Positions 18,001-37,037 of a stretch of 64,000 bases of DNA are shown piece by piece. Under the pieces are notes generated by a model. That model saw only the letters and a program-made list of their open reading frames with translations. It was not told where the DNA came from and ran no database searches. Location of the stretch: the NCBI GenBank assembly GCA_034664845.1, contig JAXDGW010000010.1, positions 58,936 to 122,935 on the forward strand. Reading direction: 5' to 3'. A program made the translations under genes and the position numbers. This stretch comes from Thermoanaerobaculia bacterium. GTDB taxonomy: Bacteria > Acidobacteriota > Thermoanaerobaculia > Gp7-AA8. Within the stretch, counting starts at the first letter, position 1. Every line of letters begins with the position of its first letter.

Positions 18001-18005
18001 ACTCG

Positions 18006-19831: not shown

Positions 19832-19862
19832 TGTCGAGATCTCCAATCCGAATTGCGGAATT

Positions 19863-20960: not shown

Positions 20961-21876
20961 AGGTCAGCTCCGCGGCCGCGCAGCGAGCGACCTGCTCGAG
21001 CGTGGCGATAGCGACGTCGCCGTATTCGCCGGCAGCGGCAACGAGATATTCGACATTGCTGGCCACCGTTTGCAGATCATGCGCATAAAGAGGGTGCCCA
21101 ACCGGTCCGCGCGTTTCCTCGGGGTGAAGAATTGTGACCACGACGTGATCGCCCTCTCCAAGCGATTCGAGATGACGCTTGAATGCTGCCCGCAGAATGT
21201 CGCTTCGGTAGGCGAGATTGAGATAACGCGTCAGCGGACGCGGGTCATTGGGACCTTCCACCGGCGCCGACGTCATCGGCACTTCGACAATCGGGAGAGC
21301 TGGAGAACCAGTAACCCGATAATCGGCCGCCGACGGCCGGTACGGCTGATTGGGCGTGACCGACCAGTCGAAGCGGCGTGACGAATCGTCGCGGCGGCGT
21401 CCGGGGATTGCGGTTGAATCGACGGTAATACCGAGCTCGCTCAGTGTCCTCATCGACTGATTGCCATGAAATGCCTCGCCGATTCGCGACGCAGTGAAGT
21501 GATAACCGCTCGCGGTCAGAGACGCATGGATCTCACGCAACGCATCGGCGCACCGGCGGTCGTCAGTCTCCGCCACGAAGGTTCCCTGCTCGTCGCGCCT
21601 GACTACATGCGGATGCCATCCAATGAAGTGGCCGGCCTGGCGCAGATTGCTCCAGATCGCATTGTGCTCCCGCAGGAGCCATGCCGCGTCGCCATAGACA
21701 TCGCTCAGCTGGTTATCAGCCCGAACGAACCATGTGGCCGTTATCCCGTGGCGGCCAAAAACCCCGGCGATGCGCGGAACTTCGGCCACGCTGTCCCAGA
21801 TGAGCGTATTTCGCTCGTCGGCGGCAGTCATGCCGTCATTGTCAATATCGACTGTAAAAACAAAGGAGATTGTCAA
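20953..21876 (-). CDS. Polysaccharide deacetylase (CE4/NodB-like) family protein
   Basis: FTVDIDNDG...HGITATWFV...GWHPHV. The TTG start overlaps the upstream TGA (TTGA). Confidence 0.5.
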   Translation of the reverse strand: MTISFVFTVDIDNDGMTAADERNTLIWDSVAEVPRIAGVFGRHGITATWFVRADNQLSDVYGDAAWLLREHNAIWSNLRQAGHFIGWHPHVVRRDEQGTFVAETDDRRCADALREIHASLTASGYHFTASRIGEAFHGNQSMRTLSELGITVDSTAIPGRRRDDSSRRFDWSVTPNQPYRPSAADYRVTGSPALPIVEVPMTSAPVEGPNDPRPLTRYLNLAYRSDILRAAFKRHLESLGEGDHVVVTILHPEETRGPVGHPLYAHDLQTVASNVEYLVAAAGEYGDVAIATLEQVARCAAAELTYV

Positions 21877-22499
21877 GAGAGGAACGCCGGAGTCTTATAG
21901 ACCAGGAGTGTGAAATGGAAAGGGAGATAGTCGTGCCGCAACTGTACGAACGGAGTAAGTGTTTTCCCGTGCGCGAACATCTCCTCGGGACTGAAGTAGT
22001 TCAGACGCGGCTCTTCGTAATTGACATATTTGCTCAGCATGTCGACGGAGACGCAAATCCGCGCTGAGTCGAACGCCGCAGATACCGCCGCTTTGACGAT
22101 GTCGTCGTTCGAGCCTTCGCTGTACCGATTGTTGAACACCTGGCACATGACGATGTAGTCGGCCTCGTGGCCGATGCCGTCACGCGAAACGTCGCGTAGC
22201 TCAAAACGGGCTTGCGGAAACCGCTCTCGGTTTGACTCGATGAACGCGGGAACGAGATCGTAGCCGATGTAGTCGACCTCGCATCCCTGAGCTCTCAGGA
22301 ATTCGTAATAGTGACCAAGACCGCATCCGATATCGAGAACCGTCTTCCCATTCATCGGGCCTGCTGCCGCATGCACAGCGTGCTGAAGACGGTAATGCTC
22401 CTCCCGTCCCGGATTCAGGGAGCGTAAGTCGACACCGAATTCTTCAAAGCGGCGCGTATAACGGCCGACGATCTCTTGTTTGTCCGCGTCGGAAATCAT
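21873..22499 (-). CDS. Class I SAM-dependent methyltransferase
   Basis: KTVLDIGCGLGHYYEFL (motif I) ... DYIVMCQVF. 208 aa. Confidence 0.7.
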   Translation of the reverse strand: MISDADKQEIVGRYTRRFEEFGVDLRSLNPGREEHYRLQHAVHAAAGPMNGKTVLDIGCGLGHYYEFLRAQGCEVDYIGYDLVPAFIESNRERFPQARFELRDVSRDGIGHEADYIVMCQVFNNRYSEGSNDDIVKAAVSAAFDSARICVSVDMLSKYVNYEEPRLNYFSPEEMFAHGKTLTPFVQLRHDYLPFHFTLLVYKTPAFLS

Positions 22500-23698
22500 G
22501 CCACCTCCGCCGGGCGAACGACGTCATACTGGATTCGCGCGTGCGCCTCGCGCGAGATTTGCAGCAATTCCTGATGATCGCGGCCCGTGGCCAGGAGAAA
22601 ACCGGGCCGTTGGCCGCCATTTTGAGCGGCGGAAATCACGTCGCCTGGTTGCACGAAGAAACCGGCATCGACCACACCCGCCAGATCCTTCACTTCGGCG
22701 ATTCCGTCGAGGCGAAGCACAGTTCCTTCGGGCAGCATAAGAAATTCGAGCAGTCCCGCCAATGAGCGTGTGGGCGTGAGATCGACCGCGTCGCCAAGAG
22801 ACTGCCTGATCCGCTGCCCTACCGCGTCAATGCCGGTCATCGCGGGTATGAGCAACGTCGCCACACCGGCGCCGCAACCACGCGCGGCAATCTCGATGAG
22901 CCGCGGCCCGGCCGGCGTAACGATGTACTCAGCATGCGTCATCCCCATTTCGATGCCTACCGCCCGAATGACACGTTCGTTCAAGCGGACCAGTGCGCCG
23001 ATCACTTTGGGATCGAAAGACGCCGGATACAGGAGCCGGATATCGAAGCTGTAGGGAGGCGCGCACTTTACCTTCTCACAGATTCCAAACACCGTCACCG
23101 CACCATTGGAGACGAATGCCTCGATCGACGACTCCGTGCCCGTCATCATCTCTTCCACGAGTACCGAATGATCGGAACTGAACACGCTTGCGGTCTCGAA
23201 CCACGCCACGACATCGTCAGGTGAATGCAGTTTCGCCACACCCCGGCTTGCCTGCGCATCCAGTGGCTTTACGACGACCGGAAATCCGATCTCAGCCGCG
23301 CCGGCTGCCGCTTCTTCCGCCGATCTCGCTCTGATGTATCGCGGCATTGGCAGCCCCGCCTCGCGGCAGCGCTCCCGCATGATGAATTTGTTCGTCGCAG
23401 CGACGGCCGTATGGAGACCGATGCCGGGAAGCCCGAGGTTTTGGGCGATGTGCGCGGCGGTAACTACGGCCACATCCGTTTGCTCCGCGATGACGCCATC
23501 CACACGGTGCTTTCTGGCGATTGTGAGCATGGCATCGCGATCGCGCGTGTCGGCCACTTCGATTTCATCGGCAATCCCCAGAGCGGGAGCATCGGCATTC
23601 TGATCCGTTGCAATGACGTGGAGACCCATCGCCTGCGCAGTACGGATTACAGGGACCTGCCACACACCTGCAGTAAGAACGAGTAGGCGTCGCTTCAT
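22496..23698 (-). CDS. ATP-grasp domain carboxylate-amine ligase
   Basis: PVVVKPLDAQASRGV (ATP-grasp B-loop region) ... EEMMTGTESSIEAF. 400 aa. It is the first gene after a small hairpin downstream of the protease gene. Confidence 0.65.
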   Translation of the reverse strand: MKRRLLVLTAGVWQVPVIRTAQAMGLHVIATDQNADAPALGIADEIEVADTRDRDAMLTIARKHRVDGVIAEQTDVAVVTAAHIAQNLGLPGIGLHTAVAATNKFIMRERCREAGLPMPRYIRARSAEEAAAGAAEIGFPVVVKPLDAQASRGVAKLHSPDDVVAWFETASVFSSDHSVLVEEMMTGTESSIEAFVSNGAVTVFGICEKVKCAPPYSFDIRLLYPASFDPKVIGALVRLNERVIRAVGIEMGMTHAEYIVTPAGPRLIEIAARGCGAGVATLLIPAMTGIDAVGQRIRQSLGDAVDLTPTRSLAGLLEFLMLPEGTVLRLDGIAEVKDLAGVVDAGFFVQPGDVISAAQNGGQRPGFLLATGRDHQELLQISREAHARIQYDVVRPAEVA

Positions 23699-23740
23699 TC
23701 GATTGAGAGCCCGGAGGCCGGAGAGAGTCTCTCCGCCGGC

Positions 23741-26245
23741 TTAACGGCCGCGCGGGATGACCGGGTTAAACGTTGGCGTCGTGGTGGTGAGATTGGCCGT
23801 GGTGACGACGCTGAAGCCGTTCATGAGCCAGACCACGTTCGCACCGGTCGCTGGGTTGTGCCAGAGAATGTCGCCAGTGCCATTGCCGTTGAAATCGCCC
23901 GCCCCGCCGAAACGGAACGCGCTGTTCATGGTCTGGATGAACGAGCCCGCGGCAGCTGTAGCACCGTTCATCAGCCACATGACACTCTGCCCGGTGGCAT
24001 CGTTGTGCCATAACAGATCTGCCTGACCATCGTTGTTGAAGTCGACCGCCGCGGCGAGGTTGTACGCGGGATCGACCGAGTTGATCTGTCCTCCGCCGTT
24101 GAGCGAAAAACCATTCATGAGCCACATGTAGTTCGCGCCGGTGGCTGGGTCGCGCCAGAGAAGGTCGCCTTTGCCATCTCCATTAAAATCGGCGGCACCG
24201 GCAAGACGTACATTCGCAGTCGTCGTTTGTATGAAACTACCTGCCGCAACCGTGACGCCGTTCATCAGCCACATCACGTTCTGGCCGGTGGCATCGTTGT
24301 GCCACAAGATGTCCGCTTTGCCGTCGCCGTTGAAGTCGATCGCTGCGGCGAGATTGTAGGCGGCGTCGAACGTCTGGATTTGACCACCGCCGATGACGTT
24401 GAATCCGTTCATCAGCCACATGTAGTTGACGCCGGTCGCCGGATCGCGCCACAGAAGGTCGGTCCGGCCATCGCCATTGAAATCGGCAGCCGCGCCGAGC
24501 CGGACGTTCGTCGTCGCGTTGGAGATGAACGCGCCTGACTTCGTTGTGGTTCCGTTCATCAGCCACACCACGTTCTGACCGGTGGCGTCGTTGCGCCACA
24601 TGATGTCGTCGATGCCGTCGCCATCGAGATCCCAACGCGCCCGCCGCACCGGGTTCACGGTTACCGTACCAGTTGGACTATCGGCAAACCCGCAACTATT
24701 CGTTACACGCACCCAGTAGCTTGTCGTGCTGGAGGGCGACACTGTGACAGACGCAGCGGTTTGGCCCTGCATCGGAGAAGACGTATTGCCGCTCGTTCCC
24801 ACATACCACTGATACGACAATGGCGCGGTACCGCTTGCGGTGACGCTGAGCGTGGCCGAACCTCCCGCGGTAATCGTTTGTGATGCCGGTCCGGATTGGA
24901 TCGACGGCGGAGTACACGTTGAACAACTACCGCCGGGATAAACGGCGGCGGCGGCGTGCTGGTCCCACGCCTGCAGCGCTGCGTTGAGACCGTGCGTAAC
25001 ACTTGCTGTCATGACCGCGGAGGAAGAACACTCCAGCGATGGATCGCTCGAGCACGGCACGTTCGGATTGTCCGCGCGGGTCTGGTCGGAGTGGCGGAAC
25101 CCGAGTGTATGGCCGAGCTCATGGGCGATCGCGGTCGGCCAATCGCCACTGTTCAGGAGCAGAGAACAATTCGCGATCCCGCGGTTCATCTCCACGTCGC
25201 CTTCGGAGGTGCTGAAGAACGTCTCGGTGCCGAGCGAGTTTGTGCCGATCGTCTCCGTGACGCCACCGACGCCGAGAGTGCCCGCATATGAGTTGCTCGA
25301 GCAGGTAAACGGCGGAGCACCATAGGCGGATAAATCGCGCTCGAACAACACGGTATTTGCACTGTCAGGACCAGCGAGTCCGGTTGTGTGTGTCGTGTCG
25401 GTGCCCCCATAGGCATAGTTGATTTGGGACGGACAATCATTGGTCCAGGTGGCGAGCCCGGTCTGTACAGCGGGAAAACCATTGCCCGGCGCGCCCGGCT
25501 CACCATTGGCGTTCGCGTAGAACACTACCGGACTCGGGAAAACGGCCCAGCGAGCGCCACGCCCGCTTCCGACTGTGTACGAGGTGGCGGAAAACGTGGC
25601 CAGCGTGATGAGGGCCGGCGGCGAGCTCATCGTGCCCATCGCCCGTCGCTGACCACTTGACTCACTCATCGCGAGCGGCTGGCTGTCAATCACGTAATCC
25701 TGGCGCGCCGGTCCTCCGTGAGCTTCCGCACGCACAAAGTTCAGGAACTCGGTGGCCGCCCGGCGCAGCTCACGGTGCGACGCGCCACTGGGATCCCATC
25801 CGACGATGTCGGCCTCATCCCGAACGGCGATCGCCCGCCCGCGCACATCTTCTGTGAGGCGGAACTTGCCGAGCACGAGGTCAGTAACGGCCCACGATCG
25901 CTGTGGTGTCATTGTAAGAAAAAGAAGCACGCGGTCACCAACAGCGAAGGAAGGAGCGCCGGGGACGAATGTGGCGCGTCCATCGTAGACGCCACCGGGC
26001 TCATGCACTTCGAAAACAGCGCCCGGATCTCCTTTGATGGTTTCCTCGGATGCCATGACGGTCACCGTTTCGATTCCGCCATGCGTGTTGAGCTGAACGT
26101 ATGAGCTTGTTGCGTTCGCTACTACGATCGCGTCGGCGCGCCTGACCATGTCACGATCGGGAGGCACGATGAACGTCGCGGCGTGGACGATGGTGGCAAC
26201 AAACAGGAGAGAGGGGGCGGCGAGAGCTAGAGTTCTGGGCTTCAT
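23741..26245 (-). CDS. Secreted metzincin-type zinc metalloprotease with Ig-like domain and about 8 C-terminal FG-GAP/beta-propeller repeats
   Basis: Signal peptide MKPRTLALAAPSLLFVATIVHAATF. HELGHTLGFRHSD matches HExxHxxGxxH, followed by a Met-turn candidate (AVMTA). C-terminal repeats DFNGDGKADILWHNDATGQNVMWLMNG, about 46 aa each, give nucleotide-level tandem repeats at 23760-24660. Confidence 0.6.
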   Translation of the reverse strand: MKPRTLALAAPSLLFVATIVHAATFIVPPDRDMVRRADAIVVANATSSYVQLNTHGGIETVTVMASEETIKGDPGAVFEVHEPGGVYDGRATFVPGAPSFAVGDRVLLFLTMTPQRSWAVTDLVLGKFRLTEDVRGRAIAVRDEADIVGWDPSGASHRELRRAATEFLNFVRAEAHGGPARQDYVIDSQPLAMSESSGQRRAMGTMSSPPALITLATFSATSYTVGSGRGARWAVFPSPVVFYANANGEPGAPGNGFPAVQTGLATWTNDCPSQINYAYGGTDTTHTTGLAGPDSANTVLFERDLSAYGAPPFTCSSNSYAGTLGVGGVTETIGTNSLGTETFFSTSEGDVEMNRGIANCSLLLNSGDWPTAIAHELGHTLGFRHSDQTRADNPNVPCSSDPSLECSSSAVMTASVTHGLNAALQAWDQHAAAAVYPGGSCSTCTPPSIQSGPASQTITAGGSATLSVTASGTAPLSYQWYVGTSGNTSSPMQGQTAASVTVSPSSTTSYWVRVTNSCGFADSPTGTVTVNPVRRARWDLDGDGIDDIMWRNDATGQNVVWLMNGTTTKSGAFISNATTNVRLGAAADFNGDGRTDLLWRDPATGVNYMWLMNGFNVIGGGQIQTFDAAYNLAAAIDFNGDGKADILWHNDATGQNVMWLMNGVTVAAGSFIQTTTANVRLAGAADFNGDGKGDLLWRDPATGANYMWLMNGFSLNGGGQINSVDPAYNLAAAVDFNNDGQADLLWHNDATGQSVMWLMNGATAAAGSFIQTMNSAFRFGGAGDFNGNGTGDILWHNPATGANVVWLMNGFSVVTTANLTTTTPTFNPVIPRGR

Positions 26246-26382
26246 GGCGGGTCCGGAGAGTGATCGCCGGAGTACCAATGCGAAAGATCTGCCTGTCAAC
26301 CGCCTCGCTCTTCAGTATAGCGGCCTCGGCCACAGCGAAGGCTGATGGGCCCGCCCAGTTCCGCTCGTTACACCTCGTACCG

Positions 26383-26967
26383 TCACTCATTGAGCTGATA
26401 ATCGGGATACGCGCCGTCACGCCGCGAAAGGATCGGATCAGTCAGAGGCCACTGAATTCCGAACGCCGGATCGTCCCACCGAATCCCTCGGCTTGCCTCT
26501 GCTACAAAACGCGCTGACATTTCGTAATAAACGTCGGATTCGTCGGCCAAGGTCTGGAACCCGTGAGCAAAATCCTTGGGAGCGTATACCGCGCGCCGGT
26601 TTTCAGCCGTGAGCTCGACGGCGGCCCAATGGCGATACGTCGAGGAATCGCGGCGCAAATCGACGATGACGTCGAGTATCGCACCGCGGACACAGCGAAC
26701 GATCTTCGCTTCCTGATGCGGCGCCGCCTGATAGTGCATCCCTCGCAGTGTCCCCTTTTTCCTGTTGTGCGAGATGTTGCACTGTGCAATGCAAGGCTCG
26801 AGGCCGAGCTCGAGAAACTCCTCCGCACAGAAGGTGCGGGCGAAGAATCCACGATCGTCTGCAATGGGCTCGATATCAATCACGTACGCACCGGCCAGTG
26901 GGAGAGCGGCGAACCTCAATGCAGAACCTCGACCTCTGGAATGAGAACGGCGAACCGCCCTCCCCAC
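26383..26967 (-). CDS. rfbC: NDP-4-keto-6-deoxyhexose 3,5-epimerase (RmlC/RfbC cupin family)
   Basis: AYVIDIEPIADDRGFFARTF...RGMHYQ...KIVRCVRGAILDVIVDLR (RmlC His/Tyr catalytic region). A possible TTG start at 26919 forms a TTGA overlap. Confidence 0.75.
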   Translation of the reverse strand: MGRAVRRSHSRGRGSALRFAALPLAGAYVIDIEPIADDRGFFARTFCAEEFLELGLEPCIAQCNISHNRKKGTLRGMHYQAAPHQEAKIVRCVRGAILDVIVDLRRDSSTYRHWAAVELTAENRRAVYAPKDFAHGFQTLADESDVYYEMSARFVAEASRGIRWDDPAFGIQWPLTDPILSRRDGAYPDYQLNE

Positions 26968-28142
26968 TCACGGATGTGGGCCATCTGTCTCACGATCTCG
27001 TCGCGAAGATTCCACGGAAGTATCAAAACGTAATCCGGGCGCGTCTCGGTGATCCTCTCCGGATCATGGATGGGAATGTGCGTCCCGGGGAGAAAAAGAC
27101 CTTGTTTGTGAGGGCTGCGGTCGACTGTGTATTCGACAAGATCGGCGCGAATGCCACAGTAGTTGAGGAGCGTATTGCCCTTGGCTGGTGCACCATAGCC
27201 AACCACATGCTTTCCCTCTTCCCGGGCGCCGATAAGGAACTTGAGGATGGTGCGTTTCAGTTGGCTGACCCGATCGCCGAAAGTCGTGTACGTCGCAAGC
27301 CGGTCGAGCCCAAACTCGCGCTCCCGACGCTCCAAATCGGCCACGGCCGGGGAGGCGGGAGCCTCTCCCTTGTGCATTGCATAGATACGAAGTGAGCCGC
27401 CATGCGTCGGCAACTCGTCGACGTCGACGATCTCAAGGCCGTGCGCGCTGAAGATCTGCCGCGCCGTGAGCAGCGAAAGATAAGAGAAATGCTCGTGATA
27501 GATCGTATCGAACTGGTTTCCGATCATCAGTCGCATGAGATGCGGAAACTCCATTGTGACCGTGCCGCCGGGCTTCAGCGCGGTCTGTAATCCCTGAACG
27601 AAGTCGTTGATGTCCGGCACGTGTGCCAAGACGTTGTTGCCGAGGAGGAGATCGGCCTTGCGGCCTTCCGCGGCCAGTTCGGAGGCCGTGTTCTGGCCAA
27701 AGAACCGAACCAGTGTGTCGATTCCCTTCTCGCGCGCCACATCGGCGACATTTGCCGCCGGCTCGATACCAAGGACAGGAATCTGCGCCTGCCGAAAGTA
27801 TTGCAGGAGGTAGCCGTCGTTGCTGGCGATCTCAATCACCTGAGACTCCCGACTAAGACCGAGGCGGACAATCATTGCTTCGCAATACCTTCTCGCGTGA
27901 TCCAGCCAGCTCTCGGAGTATGACGAGAAGTAGGCGTAATCGCTGAAGATGTTCTCCGGAGTCTGCACGGCGGGCAGCTGAACGAGAAAACAGCGTTCGC
28001 ACACATAGACGGTCAGCGGATAGAAAGGCTCCATCCGATCGAGCTGGTTGGCGCGCACATACGCATTCGACAAGGGCGACATCCCCAGGTCGGCAAAAAT
28101 ATGGACGAGCGGCTCATCGCAGAACCGGCAGGACAACGACAT
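26916..28142 (-). CDS. NDP-hexose C-methyltransferase (TylCIII/TcaB9-like: N-terminal Zn-ribbon + class I MTase + C-methyltransferase C-terminal domain)
   Basis: MSLSCRFCDEPLVHIFADLGMSPLSNAYV (Cys-rich zinc-binding N-domain), VIEIASNDGYLL (motif I) and a C-terminal domain. The start at 28140-28142 overlaps rfbG's TAA (TAATG). Confidence 0.65.
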   Translation of the reverse strand: MSLSCRFCDEPLVHIFADLGMSPLSNAYVRANQLDRMEPFYPLTVYVCERCFLVQLPAVQTPENIFSDYAYFSSYSESWLDHARRYCEAMIVRLGLSRESQVIEIASNDGYLLQYFRQAQIPVLGIEPAANVADVAREKGIDTLVRFFGQNTASELAAEGRKADLLLGNNVLAHVPDINDFVQGLQTALKPGGTVTMEFPHLMRLMIGNQFDTIYHEHFSYLSLLTARQIFSAHGLEIVDVDELPTHGGSLRIYAMHKGEAPASPAVADLERREREFGLDRLATYTTFGDRVSQLKRTILKFLIGAREEGKHVVGYGAPAKGNTLLNYCGIRADLVEYTVDRSPHKQGLFLPGTHIPIHDPERITETRPDYVLILPWNLRDEIVRQMAHIREWGGRFAVLIPEVEVLH

Positions 28143-29197
28143 TACTGACTGCCCTCGAAGCGTTCGATCTGCTGGTCCATTAGAGCGGCGGCGGAGCTGC
28201 CACCCAACAATCCCCCATAAAACTCGACGAGCCAATCGACTGCGGTTTCGAGCGGAACGCGCGGCCGCCAGCCGAGGAGTGCCCGCGAACGGGTGCTGTC
28301 GAGTTTGAGCGTAACGGCTTCCGGCACGTGAGCTTCTGAATCGCGCGTCCAGGCCGCGTCGTTGCCCCAGGCACCCAAGAGGCGATCGGCGATCCACTCG
28401 ACGGAATGCGCATCGCCCTCGTTCGGCCCGAAGTTCCAGGCGCCCGCCTCCGCGGTGCCGCTCCAGAGCGCTTCGGCGAGAACGAGGTACCCGTTGAGGG
28501 CATCGAGCACGAATTGCCATGGCCGGATCGCGGCAGGATTGCGGATCTGGGCCGGCGAGCCTGACGAGAAGGCGCGAATCAGATCGGGCACCAGACGGTC
28601 CTGCGCCCAATCACCGCCGCCGACAATGTTGCCGGCGCGGGCAGTCGCCACGCGGGGCGCGTTCCCGCTCTGAAAGAACGAGCTCCGATACGCTGCCGTG
28701 ACGAGTTCTGCACACGCCTTGCTGTTGGAGTAGGGGTCCTTGCCACCCATCGGCTCGTTTTCGCGGTACGGCCAGAGCCATTCGCGATTCTCGTAGCACT
28801 TGTCGCTGGTGACGACGACGACCACACGCACCGCGGGGCAGCGGCGAACTGCGTCGAGCAGGTGAACGGTGCCCATGACGTTGGTCGAGTACGTTCCAAC
28901 AGGATCGTCGTAGGACGCGCGGACGATCGGCTGCGCGGCGAGGTGCAGGACAACCTCGGGGTTCGCTGCCGTCATCGCCCGCTCGACAGCGGCGAGATCG
29001 CGGATGTCTGCGATGACTGATTCGATCCCGGCGCCGATCGTTGCTTCTTCGTAGAGGTTTGGCTTCGTCGGGGGATTGAGAGCGAAGCCGGTCACTGTCG
29101 CACCCGCCCGCTTGAGCCAATGTGTAAGCCACGCGCCTTTGAATCCGGTATGCCCGGTGAGGAACACGCGCCGGCCGCGCCAGAGGTCGGGCGTCAT
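28142..29197 (-). CDS. rfbG: CDP-glucose 4,6-dehydratase
   Basis: RVFLTGHTGFKGAWLTHWL...TSDKCYEN. Length and motifs match RfbG. It begins at MTPDLW within the longer ORF 28142..29431. Confidence 0.8.
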   Translation of the reverse strand: MTPDLWRGRRVFLTGHTGFKGAWLTHWLKRAGATVTGFALNPPTKPNLYEEATIGAGIESVIADIRDLAAVERAMTAANPEVVLHLAAQPIVRASYDDPVGTYSTNVMGTVHLLDAVRRCPAVRVVVVVTSDKCYENREWLWPYRENEPMGGKDPYSNSKACAELVTAAYRSSFFQSGNAPRVATARAGNIVGGGDWAQDRLVPDLIRAFSSGSPAQIRNPAAIRPWQFVLDALNGYLVLAEALWSGTAEAGAWNFGPNEGDAHSVEWIADRLLGAWGNDAAWTRDSEAHVPEAVTLKLDSTRSRALLGWRPRVPLETAVDWLVEFYGGLLGGSSAAALMDQQIERFEGSQ

Positions 29198-29201
29198 GAC
29201 G

Positions 29202-29969
29202 TCACCATACTTTCCAGGGCGCCTTCCCCGTTCCCCAGAGTGCATCGAGGAGGGTCTTGTCGCGAAGCGTGTCCATCGGCTGCCAGAAGCCGTCATGTTT
29301 GTACGCCGAGAGGTGTCCGTCGCGCGCAAGCGTCTCGAGCGGCTCGCGCTCCCAAATCGTCTCATCGCCGCCGAGGTAATCGAATACCTGCGGCTCGAGT
29401 ACGAAGAACCCGCCGTTAACCCAGCTGCCATCGCCGGGAGGCTTTTCGGCGAACGTCCGGATCTTCTCCGCCTCGATATCGATCACGCCGAAACGGCCGG
29501 GTGGCTGAACCGCCGTCAACGTCGCAAAGGTCTTTTGCTCGCGGTGAAAATCGATCAGCTTCGCGATGTTGACGTCGGCCAGCCCGTCGCCATACGTGAA
29601 ACAGAACGTCTCTCCATCGACGTGGTGCCGGACGCGTCCGAGGCGGCCACCGGTCTGGGTGTCCTGGCCGGTGTCGACCAGCGTGACCGTCCATGGTTCG
29701 GATGTGCTGTGATGCACGGAAACTTCATTGCTGCGCAGATTGATCGTCACGTCGGACATGTGCAGAAAGTAGTTCGCGAAGTACTCCTTGATCATGTAAC
29801 CCTTGTATCCAAGGCAGATCACGAAGTCGTTGATCCCATGCGCCGAGTACAACTTCATGATGTGCCAGAGGACGGGCATTCCTCCCAGCTCGACCATCGG
29901 CTTCGGACGAATGACTGTTTCTTCGCTGAGTCGCGTGCCGAGTCCACCGGCGAGAATGACGGCTTTCAT
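29202..29969 (-). CDS. rfbF: Glucose-1-phosphate cytidylyltransferase
   Basis: [75 protein letters not shown] is nearly collinear with enterobacterial RfbF. ATGA overlap with fcl. Confidence 0.85.
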   Translation of the reverse strand: MKAVILAGGLGTRLSEETVIRPKPMVELGGMPVLWHIMKLYSAHGINDFVICLGYKGYMIKEYFANYFLHMSDVTINLRSNEVSVHHSTSEPWTVTLVDTGQDTQTGGRLGRVRHHVDGETFCFTYGDGLADVNIAKLIDFHREQKTFATLTAVQPPGRFGVIDIEAEKIRTFAEKPPGDGSWVNGGFFVLEPQVFDYLGGDETIWEREPLETLARDGHLSAYKHDGFWQPMDTLRDKTLLDALWGTGKAPWKVW

Positions 29970-30937
29970 TGGCTGACCTCGTCCGATCCGCGTTGTTGAT
30001 TTCGATGGCCGTTGAACCATTCGATCGTGGCGGCGAGTCCGCCGGCGAATGACGTCTGGGACTGGAATCCGAACTCGCGCGCGGCGCGCGAGACATCAAG
30101 CCGCCGGTTGGGCTGTCCATTCGGCTTGGTGCTGTCCCACTCGACGTTGCCTTCGTATCCGACGAGGTGGCGGATCGTCTCGGCAAGATCCTTGATCGAG
30201 ATCTCCTTCCCGCTTCCGAGATTCACGGGGTCCGCGCCGTCGTAGCGGCTGGCCGCTGCCACGATTCCATCGGCAGCATCGGCCGCGTAGAGAAATTCGC
30301 GCGTCGGCGTGCCGTCACCCCAGAGCGTCACGGTCGGGCGACGGAGCTCCTTTGCGTCGACAAACTTGCGGATCATGGCGGGGATGACATGGCTCGACTC
30401 GAGATCGAAGTTGTCTCCGGGGCCGTAGAGGTTCACGGGAAGAAGGAAGATGCCGTTGAAGCCGTACTCCTGCCGGTAGGCCTGAAGCTGGACGAGGAGC
30501 GCTTTCTTGGCGATGCCATACGCCGCGTTCGTTTCCTCGGGGTAGCCATTCCAGAGATCGTCTTCGCGGAACGGAATCGGCGCGAACTTCGGATAGGCGC
30601 AGATCGTTCCGAGACAGACGAACTTGGCGACGCCGGCAAGGCGCGCTTCTTCGATGAGCTGAATCCCCATGATGGCGTTTTCGTAGAAAAAACTGCCCGG
30701 ATGCTTCTGGTTCGCGCCGATTCCGCCAACGACCGCGGCGGCGTGGATGATGATGTCGGGCTTCTGTGCCGCGAGATACGCGCGCACTGCGGCGGCGTCC
30801 CTGAGATCGAGCTCCTGTTTGCGCGGCGCGAGGATCGCGGCGGGCTGCTCCCGTTCCAGACGCTGGCGAATGAACGTGCCGAGAAAACCGCCGCCGCCGG
30901 TCAGAAGAACGCGCCGGCCCGGCCAGAATCCGCTCAT
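29966..30937 (-). CDS. fcl: GDP-L-fucose synthase (GDP-4-keto-6-deoxy-D-mannose 3,5-epimerase/4-reductase)
   Basis: [14 protein letters not shown]...[23 protein letters not shown]...NAAYGIAKK (Y-x3-K). ATGA overlap with gmd. Confidence 0.85.
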
Positions 30938-32007
30938 GAGCCGCCCGCTTTCAACTGCCCCTCGTTCGCGGCGAGCATGAGGTCCGCATCGACCATCATG
31001 TTGACGAGCTCCAGGAATGTCGTCCGCGGCGCCCAGCCGAGCTTTTCCCTCGCTTTTGTGGCGTCGCCGCACAGCAGCTCGACTTCGGACGGACGGAGAT
31101 AGCGCGGGTCGATGACGACACGCGTCTTTCCCGTTGCGGCGTCGATTCCCTGCTCGTCAGACCCGCTCCCTCGCCACTCGATGCGGATACCGGCGCGCTC
31201 GAAGGCAAGCTCGCAGAATTTGCGCACCGTGTGCGTCTCGGAAGTGGCCACCACGTAGTCGTCCGGCTGATCCTGTTGCAGCATGAGCCACATTGCCTCG
31301 ACGTAATCCCGGGCGTAACCCCAGTCGCGTTTTGCGTCGAGGTTGCCGAGATAGAGGCATTCCTGCAGACCATGCTTGATGCGGCCGACCGCTCGCGTGA
31401 TCTTGCGCGAGACGAACGTTTCACCGCGGCGCGGCGACTCGTGATTGAAGAGAATGCCGTTCGAGGCGTACAAACCGTAAGCCTCGCGATAGTTCACCGT
31501 CATCCAGTACGCGTAAACCTTCGCTACGCCATACGGGCTTCGCGGATAGAAAGGAGTCGTCTCGCGCTGCGGTGTCTCCATCACTTTGCCGAACATCTCA
31601 GACGAGGATGCCTGATAGATCCGCGGACGCAGTTCCAGCTCGCGAATGGCCTCGAGGAGCCTCACCGATCCGAGCCCGGTTACTTCGCCCGTGTACTCAG
31701 GCGTGTCGAACGACACCTTCACGTGACTCTGGGCGCCGAGGTTGTAGATCTCATCGGGCTTGACGATTCGAAGGATCCGATTCAGCGACGAGGCATCGTT
31801 GAGGTCGCCGTAGTGAAGGATCAACCGCCGGCCCAGCTCGTGCGGATCCTCATAAATCGAGTCGATGCGCTGCGTGTTGAAGGACGACGAGCGCCTGATG
31901 ATGCCGTGCACCTCGTAGCCCTTTTCGAGCAGAAGCTCGGCAAGGTAGGAGCCGTCCTGGCCGGTGATGCCGGTGATGAGTGCTTTTTTCAGCGCCTGTT
32001 CAGCCAT
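30934..32007 (-). CDS. gmd: GDP-mannose 4,6-dehydratase
   Basis: [46 protein letters not shown]...SSSEMFGK...[12 protein letters not shown]. Canonical Gmd. Confidence 0.9.
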
Positions 32008-32121
32008 CAGTCTTGCGTCCCGGGGACTCACCGGACGGGCTTCGCCCCCTTCGGTATACACACCGAGAGATCAGCACGGGAAAGCGACCCGCTTCGCATG
32101 TTCCTTCGCCGGCAGCCCGCG

Positions 32122-32478
32122 TCAGGCGGACCGGTCCGGCGTGATCACCAAACGGCGCACCTCTTCGGAAAGGTGCGTGATCTCCTCCGCCAGCCGATCG
32201 TATTCATCGCGCTTGCGGCGGAGGAAGGCGCGCGTGACGTCGATCTTTTCCTCGATTCCGCGAGGTGTGAGGACGTACAGGTACGCCGACTTGTTGTTGC
32301 TGTTGCGGAAGTTCCGAACCTTGACCCACCCCTTCTCGACGAGGGCCTTGAGGCAGTAGTTCGCTTTGCCGATGCTGACGCCGAGCGCCCGCGCCACCTG
32401 ACGTTGGGTGGCAGTGGGATGCTCCTCGATGTAGCTGAGAAGGCGGTAGCGGATCTCATCCGTCGGGTCGTAGGTCAT
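32122..32478 (-). CDS. EPS-associated MarR-family winged-helix transcriptional regulator
   Basis: 118 aa. RYRLLSYIEEHPTATQRQVARALGVSIGKANYCLKALVEKGWVKV...YLYVLTPRG matches the small MarR-type regulators found in exosortase/PEP-CTERM EPS loci. Confidence 0.65.
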   Translation of the reverse strand: MTYDPTDEIRYRLLSYIEEHPTATQRQVARALGVSIGKANYCLKALVEKGWVKVRNFRNSNNKSAYLYVLTPRGIEEKIDVTRAFLRRKRDEYDRLAEEITHLSEEVRRLVITPDRSA

Positions 32479-32545
32479 CGGTCGTGTTCAACTGTTGAAC
32501 GCACCACGATTTAACCATTACGCTCCGCCGAAAGCAACGCCACGG

Positions 32546-33127
32546 TCACCGCTTTGCGCGGCGAAGAACCGGCCGCTCAAACTCGACGGCCAGGTTCTTC
32601 CGCAGCAGAGAAACCGAGACGACGAGGCGATCGCCGCGGGCGCTGCGGACGACCACGCCCGAATAGCCGGAGAACGGACCTTTCATGATCGTGACGACGT
32701 CGTCCGGCAGAAGGTCTTCATAAACCTCGAACGATGCGCCGGCGAGTTGGAGCCGGCGGATCTGCGCGAGCTGTGCGCCGAGCAGGTCCTGATCTTCGAC
32801 CTCGATGATGCGTACCGTCACGCCGCTCCGCAGCGCGACATCACGTCCCCGCGCGTCCCCGCGCAGGAATACGTATCCCGGAAACAGCGGGACGTACGAG
32901 CGAAAACGCCGCGACGATCGTTCCGAGACGTGCTCGACCTGCGGGAGATAAAACGGGATTTGCTGATCGAGCAGGCGGCGAGCCAGGACCTTTTCCTGGC
33001 GGCTCCGCACATGCGTGACGTGCCAGGGGAAGGAATCCGCGGTCAGCGCGAAGAGATCGTCGGGAAAAAGGTCGGCTTCTTTCGGGAGCAGCGGCATGGC
33101 GGCTGCGAACAGCATCACCCCCGGCAC
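32546..33127 (-). CDS. NusG/RfaH-paralogue transcription antiterminator (UpxY/LoaP-like)
   Basis: NGN domain WHVTHVRSRQEKVLARRLLDQQIPFYLP...FPGYVFLRGD and KOW motif GDVVTIMKGPFSGYSGVV. It is the first gene of the minus-strand glycan operon. Confidence 0.7.
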   Translation of the reverse strand: MPGVMLFAAAMPLLPKEADLFPDDLFALTADSFPWHVTHVRSRQEKVLARRLLDQQIPFYLPQVEHVSERSSRRFRSYVPLFPGYVFLRGDARGRDVALRSGVTVRIIEVEDQDLLGAQLAQIRRLQLAGASFEVYEDLLPDDVVTIMKGPFSGYSGVVVRSARGDRLVVSVSLLRKNLAVEFERPVLRRAKR

Positions 33128-33177
33128 GTTTATTCCGTCATCACGCTGCTTGACGGGTCGCCGCCGCGCTGCGATCC

Positions 33178-34800
33178 TTGCGCGCTATGACCGATTCTCA
33201 TCACGCGGAAATTGTTGAAGTCGTCGACCGGCCGGTGTCCATCAGCCATCTCACCCACACGCTGCAGGCGTATGGGCCAGCCATCTTCCTCTCAACCGCC
33301 GCCATCGCCGTTCTCTACCTCATCCTCAGCGTGGCGATTTACGTTCTCTCGCCCACGCAGCGGATCAGCTCGCAGCAGTTCCGCTTGGATTTCGAAGGCG
33401 CCTCGGAAGCGAAGTACCCGAACGGAATCAAGTTCTCGAGTAGCGATATCACCTCGACGCCCATTCTCCTGAAGGTCTTTCAGGACAATCAACTGGACCG
33501 GTTCACGAGCTTTCCGAACTTCAGCCGCTCGCTGGTTGTCCTCGAGTCCAATGCCGACTACGAGCGCCTGGCCGCCGAGTACCAGGCTCGTCTGGCCGAT
33601 CCGAAGCAATCCGCGATCGACCGGGAGCGCGTCTTGCGCGACTGGCAGGCGAAAGCGTCGAGCATCGCCAAGAACGATTTTTCCCTCAACTGGTTCCGCA
33701 CGCGCGACACCGCTGCCGTTCCTGAGAGTGTCGTCAAGAAGGTTCTACTCGATACTCTGAGCTCCTGGGCTCGGTATGCTGCCAACGAGCAGCACGTGCT
33801 CAAGTACCGGCTGACTGTGTTCTCGCCGGAGATGATCGGGTCGGCCGATACCGACAGCGAGCCGATCGTGGCCATTCAGGTCCTCCGCTCGAAGATCTAC
33901 AAGGTTCTGCAGAACATCGATGCACTTCGCGAGGTCCCCGGGTCCGAGCTCGTTCGAGGTCCGGACGGGATGAATCTGGACGAGATCCGGCTTCGCCTGG
34001 AAGAGATCATCCGTTTCCACCTTGACCCGCTCACCGGACGCGTGAGCACGACTGGTCTGATCGCAAACCGGCCGGCCACGCTCCGGTTTCTCGAGAGCCA
34101 GCTCGCCTACGATCAACGCCACATGAAAGCCACGCAGGATTATGCGGACGTGATCCGGCAGTCCTTCGCGGTGTACTCACTCGATCAACGTGGGTTCTCA
34201 CCGGACAGCGTCACCGCGGCCGCGGCGACGGCCGCGGCGCCTCCTAACCAGCAGCACCCGCAGCAGCAACGCTCCGACACGTTGATGCCGCAGATCGGCG
34301 ACTCCTTCCTGGACCGGCTGCTAACCCTGACGTCTCAGTCCAGCGATATTCAATATCGCCAGAAGGTCGCGGACGAGTACCGGCGTGCTTCGGAAGCGGT
34401 CATCCCGGCGCAACAGTCAGTAGCCTACGATCAGGAAGTACTCGTCCAGGTGAGGTCCAGCGCCACCGCACCCATCGCCGGAGAAGCAGACGGCGTACGA
34501 AACGAGATCATCGCGACGAAGAATGAGGTCAAGCAATTGCTCGGCCGCGTCAATCACATTTACGATGCCGTTTCGGCGAATCTCAATCCATCCAAAGAGC
34601 TCTACACGCTCACGGCGCCCTCCGTGGTGCGCACGGAACACTCGCGCAGCCTTTTTCAACTCGCCCTGTATGGCGTAGCGGTGATCGCGCTCTCGCTGAT
34701 CGTCATCATCATTCTCTGTCTTATCCACGCCCGAATCCGCGAGGAAGAGGCGGCCGAGACGCATTCAAGTGAAGCGCTCCGCACCGATGGACAACCCTGA
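33178..34800 (+). CDS. Polysaccharide co-polymerase (PCP/GumC-EpsF-like chain-length determinant) candidate, no kinase domain
   Basis: 540 aa. One TM near residues 33-56, a large soluble domain with coiled-coil-like segments, and a second TM near residues 495-518. This is the classic PCP topology. It is divergent from the operon leader. Confidence 0.4.
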   Translation: MRAMTDSHHAEIVEVVDRPVSISHLTHTLQAYGPAIFLSTAAIAVLYLILSVAIYVLSPTQRISSQQFRLDFEGASEAKYPNGIKFSSSDITSTPILLKVFQDNQLDRFTSFPNFSRSLVVLESNADYERLAAEYQARLADPKQSAIDRERVLRDWQAKASSIAKNDFSLNWFRTRDTAAVPESVVKKVLLDTLSSWARYAANEQHVLKYRLTVFSPEMIGSADTDSEPIVAIQVLRSKIYKVLQNIDALREVPGSELVRGPDGMNLDEIRLRLEEIIRFHLDPLTGRVSTTGLIANRPATLRFLESQLAYDQRHMKATQDYADVIRQSFAVYSLDQRGFSPDSVTAAAATAAAPPNQQHPQQQRSDTLMPQIGDSFLDRLLTLTSQSSDIQYRQKVADEYRRASEAVIPAQQSVAYDQEVLVQVRSSATAPIAGEADGVRNEIIATKNEVKQLLGRVNHIYDAVSANLNPSKELYTLTAPSVVRTEHSRSLFQLALYGVAVIALSLIVIIILCLIHARIREEEAAETHSSEALRTDGQP

Positions 34801-35710
34801 GGAGCAGAGCGGCGGGCGCAAGTTCGCCGCTCTCTTCAAGGAGATCTCCCGCTCCCAGCACGCCGGCAAGTGCGATTCGCACGACCGCGCGGCCCTTGAA
34901 AAATCTCTGGATCTACTGCTGCGGATCGGAAGCGAACTGGGGGTCACGATTGGGCCGGCCAGCCGGGTTCTCGATTTCGGCTGTGGTCTCGGCGAGACGG
35001 TCGAGATCCTGCTTTCGCGGGGCATCGAGGCTTACGGTGTCGACGTCGGCGAGTGGTGGGGAAAGGATTTCGACGCCTATTGGCAAAAGGGTGATCTTCC
35101 TGCCGCCGGCGTTCTGGCACGTTTGCATTCCATCAACGAAGACCGCTATGTGTTGCCCTTTCCGGACGACTCGTTCGATTTGATCATCAGCACCGCTACG
35201 TTCGAGCACGTGTTCAACTACGAAACGGTCTTTCGCGAGATTCACCGCGTGCTCAAGCCGACAGGGATTTCCGTCAACATTTTCCCAGGACGCTGGTCGC
35301 CGGTGGAGCCTCACGTCGGCATTCCGATCATTCCGCTTTGCAAACACAATTGGTGGCTGGCACTCTGGGCTCTGCGACGGGGCACAGGAGTTGGCTGGCG
35401 CGAGCACTACCACTCCTTGCAGGGCACCATGAAACTCACTTGCTATCCGACGCGCAAGCAGGTCCGTCGCTACGCAGCCGCAGCCGGGGCGCATCTCGAA
35501 TTCTGCGAACGGCTCTATGTCGCTCTCTCAGCCTCAAGGCCTAACCGCATCGTGCGAGCGGCGAGCCGCTTCGGTCTGGGAAGGGTTGTTTCCGCCGCCG
35601 TGGAGCGGGTTTGCCAAAGGACGATGGTTCTGCGAAAACGTACCGCGCCGGGGCTCGATTCGCGGGGCGTCGGGAGAGCGTCCGCACAGCACGGAGCGAT
35701 CACGCCCTGA
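34769..35710 (+). CDS. Class I SAM-dependent methyltransferase
   Basis: RVLDFGCGLGETVEIL (motif I) and DLIISTATFEHV. The start may be M7 at 34787. Confidence 0.6.
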   Translation: MKRSAPMDNPEEQSGGRKFAALFKEISRSQHAGKCDSHDRAALEKSLDLLLRIGSELGVTIGPASRVLDFGCGLGETVEILLSRGIEAYGVDVGEWWGKDFDAYWQKGDLPAAGVLARLHSINEDRYVLPFPDDSFDLIISTATFEHVFNYETVFREIHRVLKPTGISVNIFPGRWSPVEPHVGIPIIPLCKHNWWLALWALRRGTGVGWREHYHSLQGTMKLTCYPTRKQVRRYAAAAGAHLEFCERLYVALSASRPNRIVRAASRFGLGRVVSAAVERVCQRTMVLRKRTAPGLDSRGVGRASAQHGAITP

Positions 35711-37037
35711 CCACATCGAGTCCGGCAACGCCGCGCGGGACGATGTTGCGCGTATCGATGGCCAGGCGCACCTTCGCCCAGAGTGACGGATCTCTGAACT
35801 GCGTGTGCGGCGTCGAAACGACGACCGCGTCATATTGACCGATCGCTTCCGCGGTGCAGGGAATCGACCGCAGCCCCACGTCGTGCTTCCGCCCCCGCCG
35901 AGCCTGCGGTACGTAAGGATCACAGTACGCGACCACAGCACCTCGGGCCTGCAGCATCTCGATCAACTCGAACGACGGCGACTCGCGGTCGTCATCGATG
36001 TCGGGCTTGTACGAGAGCCCCATCACCAGCACCGTCGCGCCGACGATGCTCTTGCCGTGTTTGTTCACCGCCTCGACCGTGCGGTCGACGACGTAGCGCG
36101 GCATCGAGGCATTGACCTCGCCTGCCAGTTCGATGAAACGGGCCCACGTCCCATACTCGGCGGCCTTCCACGTGAGGTAAAACGGATCGAGTGGAATGCA
36201 GTGCCCGCCCAGACCAGGGCCCGGATAGAACGGCATGAAGCCGAACGGTTTCGTCTTTGCTGCCTCGATGACTTCCCACACGTCGATGCCCATCCGCTCA
36301 AAGACAACCTTCATTTCGTTCACGAGAGCGATGTTCACGGCGCGAAAAATGTTCTCGAGGAGCTTGGCGGACTCCGCGACCTCCGTCGAGGAAACAGGAA
36401 CGACGCGATCGACGACGGCGCTATAGAGCTCCGTGGCTGCGCGAAGGGAGGGAGCGTCGATCCCGCCGACGACTTTCGGGATGTTCCGCGTGTTGAAGCG
36501 CTCGTTCCCGGGATCTTCGCGCTCGGGAGAGAAGCCGACAAAGTAGTCGCGGCCGCAGACAAGGCCACGCGCCTCAAAGCGCGACAGAAGCTCCTCGCGC
36601 GTCGTACCGGGGTAGGTGGTCGATTCGAGTACGACGATCTGCCCCGGCCGCAGGCGCCGCGCGATCTCTTCCGCCGTAATGCGGATGTACCGCAGATCGG
36701 GCTCGCGGTGCGTACCCAGTGGCGTCGGTACGCAGATGAGGATCGCGTCACAGTCGGCGAGGCGGTCGAAGTCGGCCGTGGCAAAGACCTTCTCGTTGCC
36801 AAACGCTTTGGCGATTCGTTCCCGGCCGATGTGCCGGATGTAGGTCTCGCCCGCGTTGAGCATCCCGGTCTTCGTCGTATCGACGTCGAAGCCCGTCACC
36901 GGGAAGCCGGCCTCCTCGAAAAGGAGAACGAGCGGAAGTCCGACGTAGCCGAGGCCGATCACGCCGATGCGAGCGGAGCGCGCTCGGATCGATTCGATCA
37001 ACGTGTCGATTCTTTGCGGGCCGGATGTCGCGGTCAT
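35700..37037 (-). CDS. UDP-N-acetyl-D-hexosamine 6-dehydrogenase (WecC/WbpA/Cap5O-type nucleotide-sugar dehydrogenase)
   Basis: [18 protein letters not shown] (NAD Rossmann), CVPTPL and [12 protein letters not shown] (catalytic Cys). The start at MTATSG gives an ATGA overlap with the epimerase gene. Confidence 0.8.

Follow-up and report, generated by a model that had tools for sequence, protein, structure and literature searches.

A C-methyltransferase cassette in a Thermoanaerobaculia polysaccharide locus and the predicted CDP-sugar specificity of its RmlC-like epimerase

Does an RmlC-like epimerase encoded among genes of cytidine diphosphate (CDP)-sugar synthesis act on a CDP-sugar, or on the deoxythymidine diphosphate (dTDP)-sugar implied by the usual annotation of its family? 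The question is raised by a 64,000-nucleotide stretch of contig JAXDGW010000010.1 from a Thermoanaerobaculia bacterium (hereafter, the window; G+C content about 62%). The preliminary description of this DNA, whose named open reading frames (ORFs) exist at or near the positions it gave, grouped the RmlC-like protein with RmlA as dTDP-type; it also observed, correctly, that the gene lies in the CDP sub-cluster (at the 3' end) and not beside rmlA, and suggested that the protein may act on a CDP-sugar, which would be a noteworthy switch of substrate. The dTDP grouping is contradicted by gene context, clade and residue signature, and a CDP rather than a dTDP substrate is strongly supported, because the context is conserved, the clade is separate, the signature is common with that of a proven CDP epimerase, and a blind test linked signature to context. 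The switch is not a novelty: both the use of a CDP-sugar by an RmlC-fold enzyme (Campylobacter jejuni HS41.19, characterized in 2025) and the rfbF-rfbG-rfbC gene arrangement (published in 1998) are already known. We consider it likely that the window protein is a cofactor-independent epimerase of the RmlC fold with a CDP-linked 4-keto-6-deoxyhexose as its substrate, operating in the cassette pathway proposed below. The family assignments, the operon, the clade, the statistics of gene context and the residue signature are computational results, whereas the nucleotide specificity, the order of the steps, the position of methylation and the final product are all inferred.

The epimerase gene and its conserved neighbours

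The long ORFs of the minus strand from 32061 down to 26383 comprise six genes:

30934..32007, minus strand, gmd, GDP-mannose (guanosine diphosphate mannose) 4,6-dehydratase, 357 amino acids (TIGR01472, 583 bits, cut-off 415)
29966..30937, minus strand, fcl-like short-chain dehydrogenase/reductase (SDR), probable GDP-L-fucose synthase, 323 amino acids (NF047922, 307 bits, cut-off 500)
29202..29969, minus strand, rfbF, glucose-1-phosphate cytidylyltransferase, 255 amino acids (TIGR02623, 454 bits, cut-off 300)
28142..29197, minus strand, rfbG, 4,6-dehydratase of CDP-glucose (TIGR02622, 460 bits, cut-off 278)
26916..28142, minus strand, C-methyltransferase of nucleoside diphosphate (NDP)-4-keto-hexoses, TylC3/MtmC/KijD1/TcaB9 type, 408 amino acids (PF08421, PF13489, PF08484)
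26383..26919, minus strand, RmlC-fold epimerase, predicted CDP-4-keto-6-deoxyhexose 5- (or 3,5-) epimerase, 178 amino acids (PF00908, 205 bits)

The gmd stop overlaps the start of the fcl-like gene as ATGA, the fcl-like gene overlaps rfbF in the same way, rfbF and rfbG are separated by a 4-nt gap, rfbG and the C-methyltransferase gene meet at TAATG, and the methyltransferase stop overlaps the RmlC-like gene as TTGA. Because all these junctions overlap or nearly touch, the six genes (32007..26383, minus strand) form a single translationally coupled operon. The maximal ORF of the RmlC-like gene is 26383..26967, and its residues 22-189 match positions 2-165 of the 168-position PF00908 profile; the likely translation start is the TTG at 26919, which yields the 178-residue protein, since homologues align from residue 1-3 of this form.

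Both rfbF and rfbG exceed their equivalog cut-offs, in agreement with the CDP branch of the preliminary description, and their products share 53% and 39% identity with HS41.21 and HS41.20, respectively, whose functions have been validated biochemically. The C-methyltransferase, by contrast, was missing from the earlier gene list, and its inclusion changes the predicted substrate and product. This protein combines a zinc domain (PF08421, 82 bits; Cys5, Cys8, Cys48 and Cys51 in the translation), an S-adenosylmethionine (SAM)-dependent methyltransferase domain (PF13489, 63 bits) and a C-terminal domain (PF08484, 222 bits). Its nearest solved relatives are the D-mycarose 3-C-methyltransferase MtmC (4rv9; E 1.6e-88 over the full length), KijD1 (5t64) and TcaB9 (3ndi), and all its solved relatives, with E values from 1e-70 to 1e-88, are C3-methyltransferases of NDP-4-keto sugars, in a comparison limited to solved structures. 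By analogy, the methyl group is most likely added at C3. The gene calls of the Joint Genome Institute (JGI) on the source contig, a metagenome contig of 126.8 kb, give identical lengths for rfbF, rfbG and the C-methyltransferase.

Gene context was compared around the 80 closest relatives of the RmlC-like protein in species-representative genomes (52-67% identity, at least 14 phyla). The order RfbF-RfbG-C-methyltransferase-RmlC-like recurs in these loci, with nearly all epimerases encoded directly after the methyltransferase, and an RmlA match lies within 9 kb in two of the 80. Among the 88 members of the clade that includes the window protein (see below), 60 have RfbF or RfbG encoded within 6 kb of the RmlC-like gene and 72 have an adjoining C-methyltransferase gene, and neither RmlA nor RmlB was found within 6 kb in any of them.

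Annotated plasmids of cultured bacteria served as an independent sample. Most of the plasmid-encoded matches with at least 45% identity have rfbF/rfbG nearby (Deinococcus ficus, Aquisphaera, Brachyspira hyodysenteriae, Peteryoungia, Alloyangia and Desulfolutivibrio); a few at this level (Azospirillum, Sinorhizobium meliloti pSymB and unannotated records) have no nucleotidyltransferase or dehydratase gene nearby. At 42% identity or less, 10 of the 11 fetched matches are in rmlABD context (Phaeobacter, Ilyobacter, Streptomyces, Rhizobium tumorigenes, Bartonella, Bacillus, Lactiplantibacillus, Bradyrhizobium, Sphingomonas and E. coli), the one match without annotated rml neighbours being that of Priestia filamentosa. 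PGAP labels most of the CDP-context relatives (L082-L094) 'rfbC' and the rest 'dTDP-4-dehydrorhamnose 3,5-epimerase family protein'.

Several loci depart from the common arrangement. On Brachyspira hyodysenteriae plasmid pBHZ375 (L085:2873-7376), the genes are rfbF, rfbG, a radical SAM protein gene, an rfbC-like gene and a reductase gene, so that a radical SAM enzyme fills the slot taken by the C-methyltransferase elsewhere. A Peteryoungia desertarenae plasmid (L092:1-6549) encodes two divergent CDP cassettes back to back, one with an epimerase of the HS41.19 lineage and the other with a main-clade epimerase, each accompanied by a separate rfbF, rfbG and class I SAM methyltransferase. In 13 loci (L007, L009, L014, L054, L058, L066, L070 and others), a DUF4910/DUF2172/HTH_47 protein with an aminopeptidase-like fold is encoded directly downstream of the RmlC-like gene; the rfbF-like gene of these loci is mostly divergent (35-41% identity) and located downstream in seven of them, and is otherwise absent or closer to the rfbF of the window. 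These loci look like a distinct sub-type of the cassette. Finally, in a Nitrospiraceae metagenome-assembled genome (MAG; L001:8995-10176 on QZJQ01000023.1), a single 393-residue ORF joins an RmlC-like domain to a C-terminal class I methyltransferase domain.

A separate clade with its own residue signature

The preliminary description proposed phylogenetic placement as a check on the nucleotide. In a neighbour-joining tree of 104 sequences, the window protein belongs to a clade of 88 sequences (bootstrap 97/100), and the sampled rmlABD-linked RmlCs form a clade of their own (84/100); thus, there is no tight clustering with these dTDP enzymes. HS41.19 groups with sequences from Peteryoungia (L092_157) and S. 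meliloti (92/100), outside the clade of the window protein.

The catalytic residues His62, Lys72, Tyr132 and Asp168 are retained by the window protein and by 86-88 of the 88 clade members. In this family, the histidine is the base, in a dyad with the aspartate, the lysine stabilizes the enolate, and the tyrosine is the acid (PMC7949155). Two other positions separate the CDP-context from the dTDP-context sequences. Position 28 is Arg in 87 of the 88 main-clade members and in all five other CDP-type sequences, and Glu in 11/11 dTDP-context enzymes; position 70 is Glu in the same proportions of the CDP-type sequences (87/88 and 5/5), and Gln in 10 of the 11 dTDP-context enzymes. Cys31 and Cys47 add to the contrast. 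Compared to the canonical RmlC/RfbC proteins (E. coli RfbC, 39% identity; Salmonella, 1dzr), the window protein belongs to the same Pfam family, has the same His/Asp dyad, Lys and Tyr, and is of similar length, but it falls in a separate clade, which never has rmlA, rmlB or rmlD nearby, and differs by the replacement of Glu28 with Arg, Gln70 with Glu, Asn31 with Cys and Asp47 with Cys.

HS41.19 of C. jejuni (Q5M6T2) is an RmlC-family CDP-4-keto-6-deoxy-D-glucose 3,5-epimerase (Simons, Narindoshvili & Raushel 2025, PMC12369002). The window protein has in common with it the RmlC fold, Arg28, Cys31, Glu70 and the catalytic residues, and both are encoded beside a glucose-1-phosphate cytidylyltransferase and a CDP-glucose 4,6-dehydratase; Arg28, Cys31 and Glu70 are likewise found in the CDP-context proteins of Brachyspira and Peteryoungia. 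HS41.19 differs in a 23-residue insertion and in its pathway, which lacks a C-methyltransferase and ends in a reductase and a pyranose/furanose mutase.

A possible role of position 28 comes from the GDP-specific enzymes DdahB and MlghB, in which Thr33' forms a hydrogen bond to guanine, Ile31' stacks against this base, and the phosphate is bound by Arg28' and Arg64 (PMC7949155). With a constant offset of five residues, Thr33', Ile31', Arg28' and Arg64 map to Arg28, Phe26, Arg23 and Arg59 of the window protein. Because position 28 maps onto Thr33', it would be a base-contacting position. Two further papers (PMC9095892 and PMC9415975) contain no base-contact details.

The signature was then followed beyond the tree. 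A search of 1.84 billion cluster representatives (clusters at 50% identity) yielded 691 clusters at E <= 1e-30; among the best 150 of these 691, 121 carry Arg/Glu and seven carry Glu/Gln. Eight representatives, four per signature, were chosen with their gene context hidden beforehand; seven of the eight share 41-46% identity with the window protein, and the context proved readable in six. The Arg/Glu genes follow RfbG and a methyltransferase (P0192), follow a methyltransferase-like gene (P0210), or, like their counterpart in the Deinococcus CDP locus, precede a GFO/SAF oxidoreductase (P0222). The Glu/Gln genes follow a long-form RmlA (P0226), precede RmlD (P0231), or lie within RmlA-RmlC-RmlB-RmlD (P0235). 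Thus, gene context is predicted by the signature and not by overall identity.

One residue of the window protein is unusual in its own clade. Residue 116 (26572..26574), in the conserved P-x-G-F-A-H-G motif just ahead of His119, is Asp, a state common to four clade members only; the residue is Gly in 81 of the 88 members and in 11/11 dTDP enzymes.

A proposed pathway and its alternatives

Two genes of the same co-directional array are candidates for finishing the CDP-sugar, and another methyltransferase gene lies between them and the cassette:

18006..18740, minus strand, methyltransferase of the CmcI/rhamnosyl-O-methyltransferase family (PF04989, 302 bits), proposed part of an extended CDP-sugar module
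16840..18021, minus strand, DegT-family sugar C4-aminotransferase (PF01041, 392 bits), proposed part of the same module
21873..22499, minus strand, class I methyltransferase (Pfam methyltransferase domains)

Of the related loci, 67 extend for 3 kb or more downstream; here, the cassette is followed by a conserved SDR, presumably a 4-ketoreductase, in 20, by an RmlD-like reductase in six or seven, and by a DegT aminotransferase in 11; the SDR and DegT never co-occur in these 67 loci. Of the 80 loci, 28 encode a homologue of the window CmcI protein downstream of the cassette and 18 a homologue of DegT, counted at 30% identity or more; the best are 61-68% identical. Where CmcI is followed by DegT in other loci, the order and short overlap seen in the window are reproduced, and DegT homologues with at least 45% identity (mostly 63-67%) come directly after a CmcI-like gene in 11 of the 67. 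The nearest solved relative of DegT is GDP-perosamine synthase (3bn1/3dr4, 305 bits), a C4-aminotransferase. Of the methyltransferases and acetyltransferases encoded between the epimerase and CmcI elsewhere, the only homologue found in the window is the product of 21873..22499, a weak match to the domain fused to the Nitrospiraceae epimerase (27% identity, E 3e-21, to L001 residues 176-393).

In the proposed pathway, RfbF would convert glucose-1-phosphate to CDP-D-glucose, and RfbG would convert this to CDP-4-keto-6-deoxy-D-glucose, which the TylC3/TcaB9-type enzyme would methylate, most likely at C3. The RmlC-like enzyme would then invert C5, with the His62/Asp168 base, the Tyr132 acid and Lys72 as the enolate stabilizer; if epimerization precedes methylation, C3 would be inverted too, and the result would be a 4-keto intermediate of the L-series. 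DegT probably transaminates the 4-keto group, and the CmcI-type enzyme would add a further methyl group. The predicted product is a derivative of CDP-4-amino-4,6-dideoxy-3-C-methyl-L-hexose, similar to kansosamine. Gmd and the fcl-like enzyme would separately supply GDP-L-fucose or a close relative.

This scheme resembles dTDP-L-mycarose-type pathways, in which TylC3/EryBIII/MtmC is followed by a 5-epimerase of the TylK/EvaD type and C3-methylation precedes C5 epimerization. The two enzyme families are the same, and the predicted logic is alike, with C3-methylation of a 4-keto intermediate and then C5 epimerization by an RmlC-fold enzyme. The window differs in that CDP is predicted instead of dTDP, the genes belong to a polysaccharide locus and not to an antibiotic cluster, and genes for a 2,3-dehydratase or a 3-ketoreductase are absent, which would leave the 2-hydroxyl in place.

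Two known sugars carry the modifications that would be expected from the cassette and CmcI combined with either a reductase or DegT. Vinelose, 6-deoxy-3-C-methyl-2-O-methyl-L-talose, was isolated from Azotobacter vinelandii as its CDP derivative, to our knowledge the only CDP-linked C-methyl sugar. Kansosamine, 4-amino-4,6-dideoxy-3-C-methyl-2-O-methyl-L-mannose, occurs N-acylated in the lipooligosaccharides of Mycobacterium kansasii. The presence of N-acyl-kansosamine in M. kansasii is documented (PMC4403928). No assigned biosynthetic genes for CDP-vinelose or kansosamine were found in the searchable literature. We tentatively propose, as a possibility short of an expectation, that the four-gene cassette with CmcI and DegT is an uncharacterized module for a CDP-activated 4-amino-4,6-dideoxy-3-C-methyl-O-methyl-L-hexose, and that the loci with a reductase would make sugars of the CDP-vinelose type. 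The full aminotransferase-type module is present in 10-11 loci from about seven phyla.

Several observations weigh against this interpretation or parts of it. The 80 loci were picked as the nearest relatives of the query, and the tree is distance-based and includes 11 dTDP-context sequences. The sole characterized CDP enzyme, HS41.19, is 38% identical to the window protein and belongs to a separate lineage of the tree, and the role of Arg28/Glu70 in cytosine recognition is suggested by position mapping. The window protein passes, marginally, the cut-off of the TIGR01221 rmlC equivalog (165.5 against 155.75 bits), and the solved proteins most similar to it are dTDP RmlCs (E about 1e-40). C3 and C5 methylation are indistinguishable from sequence here. 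As for the finishing steps, the conserved downstream SDR has no orthologue in the window (the top score is 112 bits, where orthologues reach at least 200-480), DegT and CmcI are separated from the cassette by 7.6 kb of unrelated genes (18785..26299), and DegT could serve the GDP branch, given its similarity to GDP-perosamine synthase and the presence of gmd in the operon.

The intervening segment, 18785..26299, encodes an 852-residue secreted protein with an HExxHxxGxxH zinc-protease motif (metzincin-like), an Ig-like domain and FG-GAP repeats; an ATP-grasp enzyme similar to L-amino-acid ligases; the methyltransferase listed above; a protein of unknown function; a DegT-like protein in which the N-terminal half alone matches the family; and an HMGL-like protein similar to 4-hydroxy-2-oxovalerate aldolases. 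One speculative role for the ligase, the aldolase and the methyltransferase would be to make an N-acyl group or to place it on the amino sugar.

The alternative that survives best retains the CDP-linked sugar but likens the pathway to that of noviose: the RmlC-like protein would act as a mono-epimerase before methylation, and the methyl group would be added at C5 instead of C3. NovW and NovU are the precedent for mono-epimerization followed by C5 methylation. NovW is among the solved relatives of the RmlC-like protein (E 3.6e-31), the epimerase gene is ahead of the methyltransferase gene in Desulfolutivibrio (L094) and in Synechocystis (slr0985-slr1610), and the methylated position is not fixed by sequence alone. 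However, the solved relatives of the methyltransferase are all of the C3 type, and CDP-vinelose is a 3-C-methyl sugar of A. vinelandii, which has the rfbFGC arrangement, so that we regard a C5-methylated product as unlikely.

A GDP-linked substrate appears quite improbable. Under this scenario, the C-methyltransferase and the RmlC-like enzyme would act on GDP-4-keto-6-deoxy-D-mannose produced by the Gmd of the operon, and rfbF and rfbG would serve another sugar. A GDP route to a 3-C-methyl-6-deoxyhexose has been proposed for the virenose of Coxiella, gmd and the fcl-like gene belong to the same coupled operon and their counterparts lie beside the cassette in two other loci (L046 and L003), and DegT is closest to GDP-perosamine synthase. 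However, gmd is found near the cassette in only about four of the 80 loci, whereas rfbF and rfbG are regular neighbours; the known GDP-specific RmlC-fold enzymes are far more distant from the window protein (E about 1e-14), with Thr in place of Arg where position 28 maps; and Arg28/Glu70 are common with the proven CDP enzyme.

It is very unlikely that the protein is a canonical dTDP-4-dehydrorhamnose 3,5-epimerase that makes dTDP-L-rhamnose together with RmlA (46604..47512) and with RmlB and RmlD encoded elsewhere, its position among CDP genes being accidental. The TIGR01221 score, the dTDP RmlCs as best solved relatives, the presence of rmlA in the window and the retention of all catalytic residues would fit this role. 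Against it, the window lacks rmlB and rmlD, the gene is translationally coupled to that of the C-methyltransferase, none of the 88 clade members has rmlA or rmlB nearby, and the protein carries Arg28/Glu70 in place of the dTDP-type residues in a signature whose link to context was upheld by the blind test. There is just as little reason to expect that the cassette is an incomplete remnant that has lost its usual 4-ketoreductase and yields no finished CDP-sugar, as the missing SDR orthologue and the secreted FG-GAP/metalloprotease-like gene directly after the RmlC-like gene might suggest, given that its four genes are intact, full-length and translationally coupled, and that CmcI and DegT, in the same co-directional array, are 63-68% identical to their counterparts in complete loci elsewhere.

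The surrounding locus and the meaning of the cassette

Upstream of the operon are two regulatory genes, the first of which heads the co-directional gene array:

32546..33127, minus strand, NusG-paralogue (UpxY/RfaH-like) transcription antiterminator (PF02357 NusG, 37 bits; NF033644 UpxY, 73 bits, under the cut-off of 100)
32122..32478, minus strand, MarR-family exopolysaccharide (EPS)-associated regulator (TIGR04176 MarR_EPS, 151 bits, cut-off 88)

Downstream of this pair, more than 30 kb of the minus strand (471..33127) consists of near-continuous co-directional polysaccharide genes, including those for glycosyltransferases, a Wzx-like flippase, an asparagine synthase and several methyltransferases, which suggests operon-specific antitermination of a very long transcript. 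A scan of 26000..33400 for promoters and terminators yielded nothing exceeding chance. The nearest relative of the window's cassette is that of locus L002. Locus L046, from another Thermoanaerobaculia MAG (DASUSN010000102.1), has the layout of the window, with rmlA, a Wzz-like gene, gmd, fcl, rfbF, rfbG, the methyltransferase, the epimerase and an FG-GAP protein gene in this order; the identities are 57-81%, except for the Wzz-like and FG-GAP genes (34-44%).

Other genes of the window that bear on nucleotide sugars are the following:

46604..47512, minus strand, rmlA, glucose-1-phosphate thymidylyltransferase (TIGR01207, 486 bits, cut-off 361; 64% identity to E. coli RfbA)
35700..37067, nucleotide-sugar dehydrogenase (TIGR03026, 410 bits)
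37034..38044, SDR resembling UDP (uridine diphosphate)-glucuronate 4-epimerases
39582..42430, GHMP kinase, SIS protein, HAD-IIIA phosphatase and transaldolase (TIGR02134, 345 bits)
11709..12782, SDR whose nearest solved relatives are CDP-tyvelose 2-epimerases (121 bits)
45663..46607, SDR nearest to GalE (253 bits)

The preliminary description counted five activation chemistries in this locus. Those for CDP, GDP and dTDP are represented by committed enzymes, and the other two are plausible; in any case, multiple activation chemistries are unremarkable for a large polysaccharide locus. In the GDP branch, gmd is well above its cut-off, and the fcl-like SDR, which is under the Fcl cut-off, is nevertheless closest, among solved proteins, to GDP-L-fucose synthases, to which it aligns over the full length (E 1e-66 to 1e-70; 8du0, 240 bits; E. 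coli 1bws, 227 bits). The assignment of rmlA as dTDP-type is sound, and it is the sole dTDP-specific gene of the window, some 20 kb from the RmlC-like gene: neither rmlB nor rmlD was found in the 64 kb (the best RfbB-like match has 27% identity, and there is no RfbD match), which leaves the dTDP-L-rhamnose set incomplete, with RmlA only. The pair at 35700..38044, earlier assigned to a UDP-linked N-acetylhexosamine (HexNAc) uronic acid, does consist of a dehydrogenase and a uronate-epimerase-like SDR, with the nucleotide itself a conjecture. The best match of the latter, PDB 5u4q (485 bits), is labelled 'dTDP-glucose 4,6-dehydratase', which may be a generic annotation, and the next matches are UDP-glucuronate 4-epimerases (6zl6). 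GDP-heptose synthesis by gmhA, gmhB and hddA is not established: the scores of the heptose-like genes are far under the equivalog cut-offs (48/209 bits for GmhA, 125/178 for GmhB and 166/600 for HddA), no HddC-type nucleotidyltransferase was found in the window, and a transaldolase gene is adjacent, so that 39582..42430 resembles a heptose or some other sugar-phosphate pathway. The two remaining SDRs, described as similar to a CDP-paratose epimerase and to GalE, retain these affinities.

The core of the cassette has been described before. Hausman et al. (1998) published the rfbF-rfbG-rfbC arrangement of A. vinelandii, and Fisher et al. (2013, PMC3769361) noted it in Synechocystis, where slr0983-slr0985 are joined by slr1610, for a 'putative C-3 methyltransferase'. 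These organisms and the window have the same genes, for a cytidylyltransferase, a CDP-glucose dehydratase, an RmlC-like epimerase and a putative C-3 methyltransferase, but the gene order differs, the Synechocystis methyltransferase following the epimerase. In S. meliloti, ddhA-ddhB have been described with an NDP-hexose 3-C-methyltransferase. No biochemical study of a methyltransferase-containing cassette, or of the A. vinelandii or Synechocystis genes, was found in the searchable literature.

The cassette appears to be a widespread, uncharacterized route to C-methyl-branched deoxysugars in environmental polysaccharides, and it is a candidate genetic basis for CDP-vinelose and kansosamine, sugars known for decades. 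Its epimerase family, a large one, routinely carries the label 'dTDP-4-dehydrorhamnose 3,5-epimerase (rfbC)', whereas gene context and the two-residue signature point to CDP; the TIGR01221 and PGAP naming of the CDP-context relatives is thus a probable systematic error in the nucleotide, and pathway reconstructions that derive rhamnose from this gene would be wrong. If the module tentatively proposed above does make a CDP-activated sugar, Arg28/Glu70 versus Glu28/Gln70 would amount to a simple code, transferable among RmlC-fold proteins, for whether cytidine or thymidine is recognized, and very many public 'rfbC / dTDP-rhamnose' annotations would carry the wrong nucleotide.

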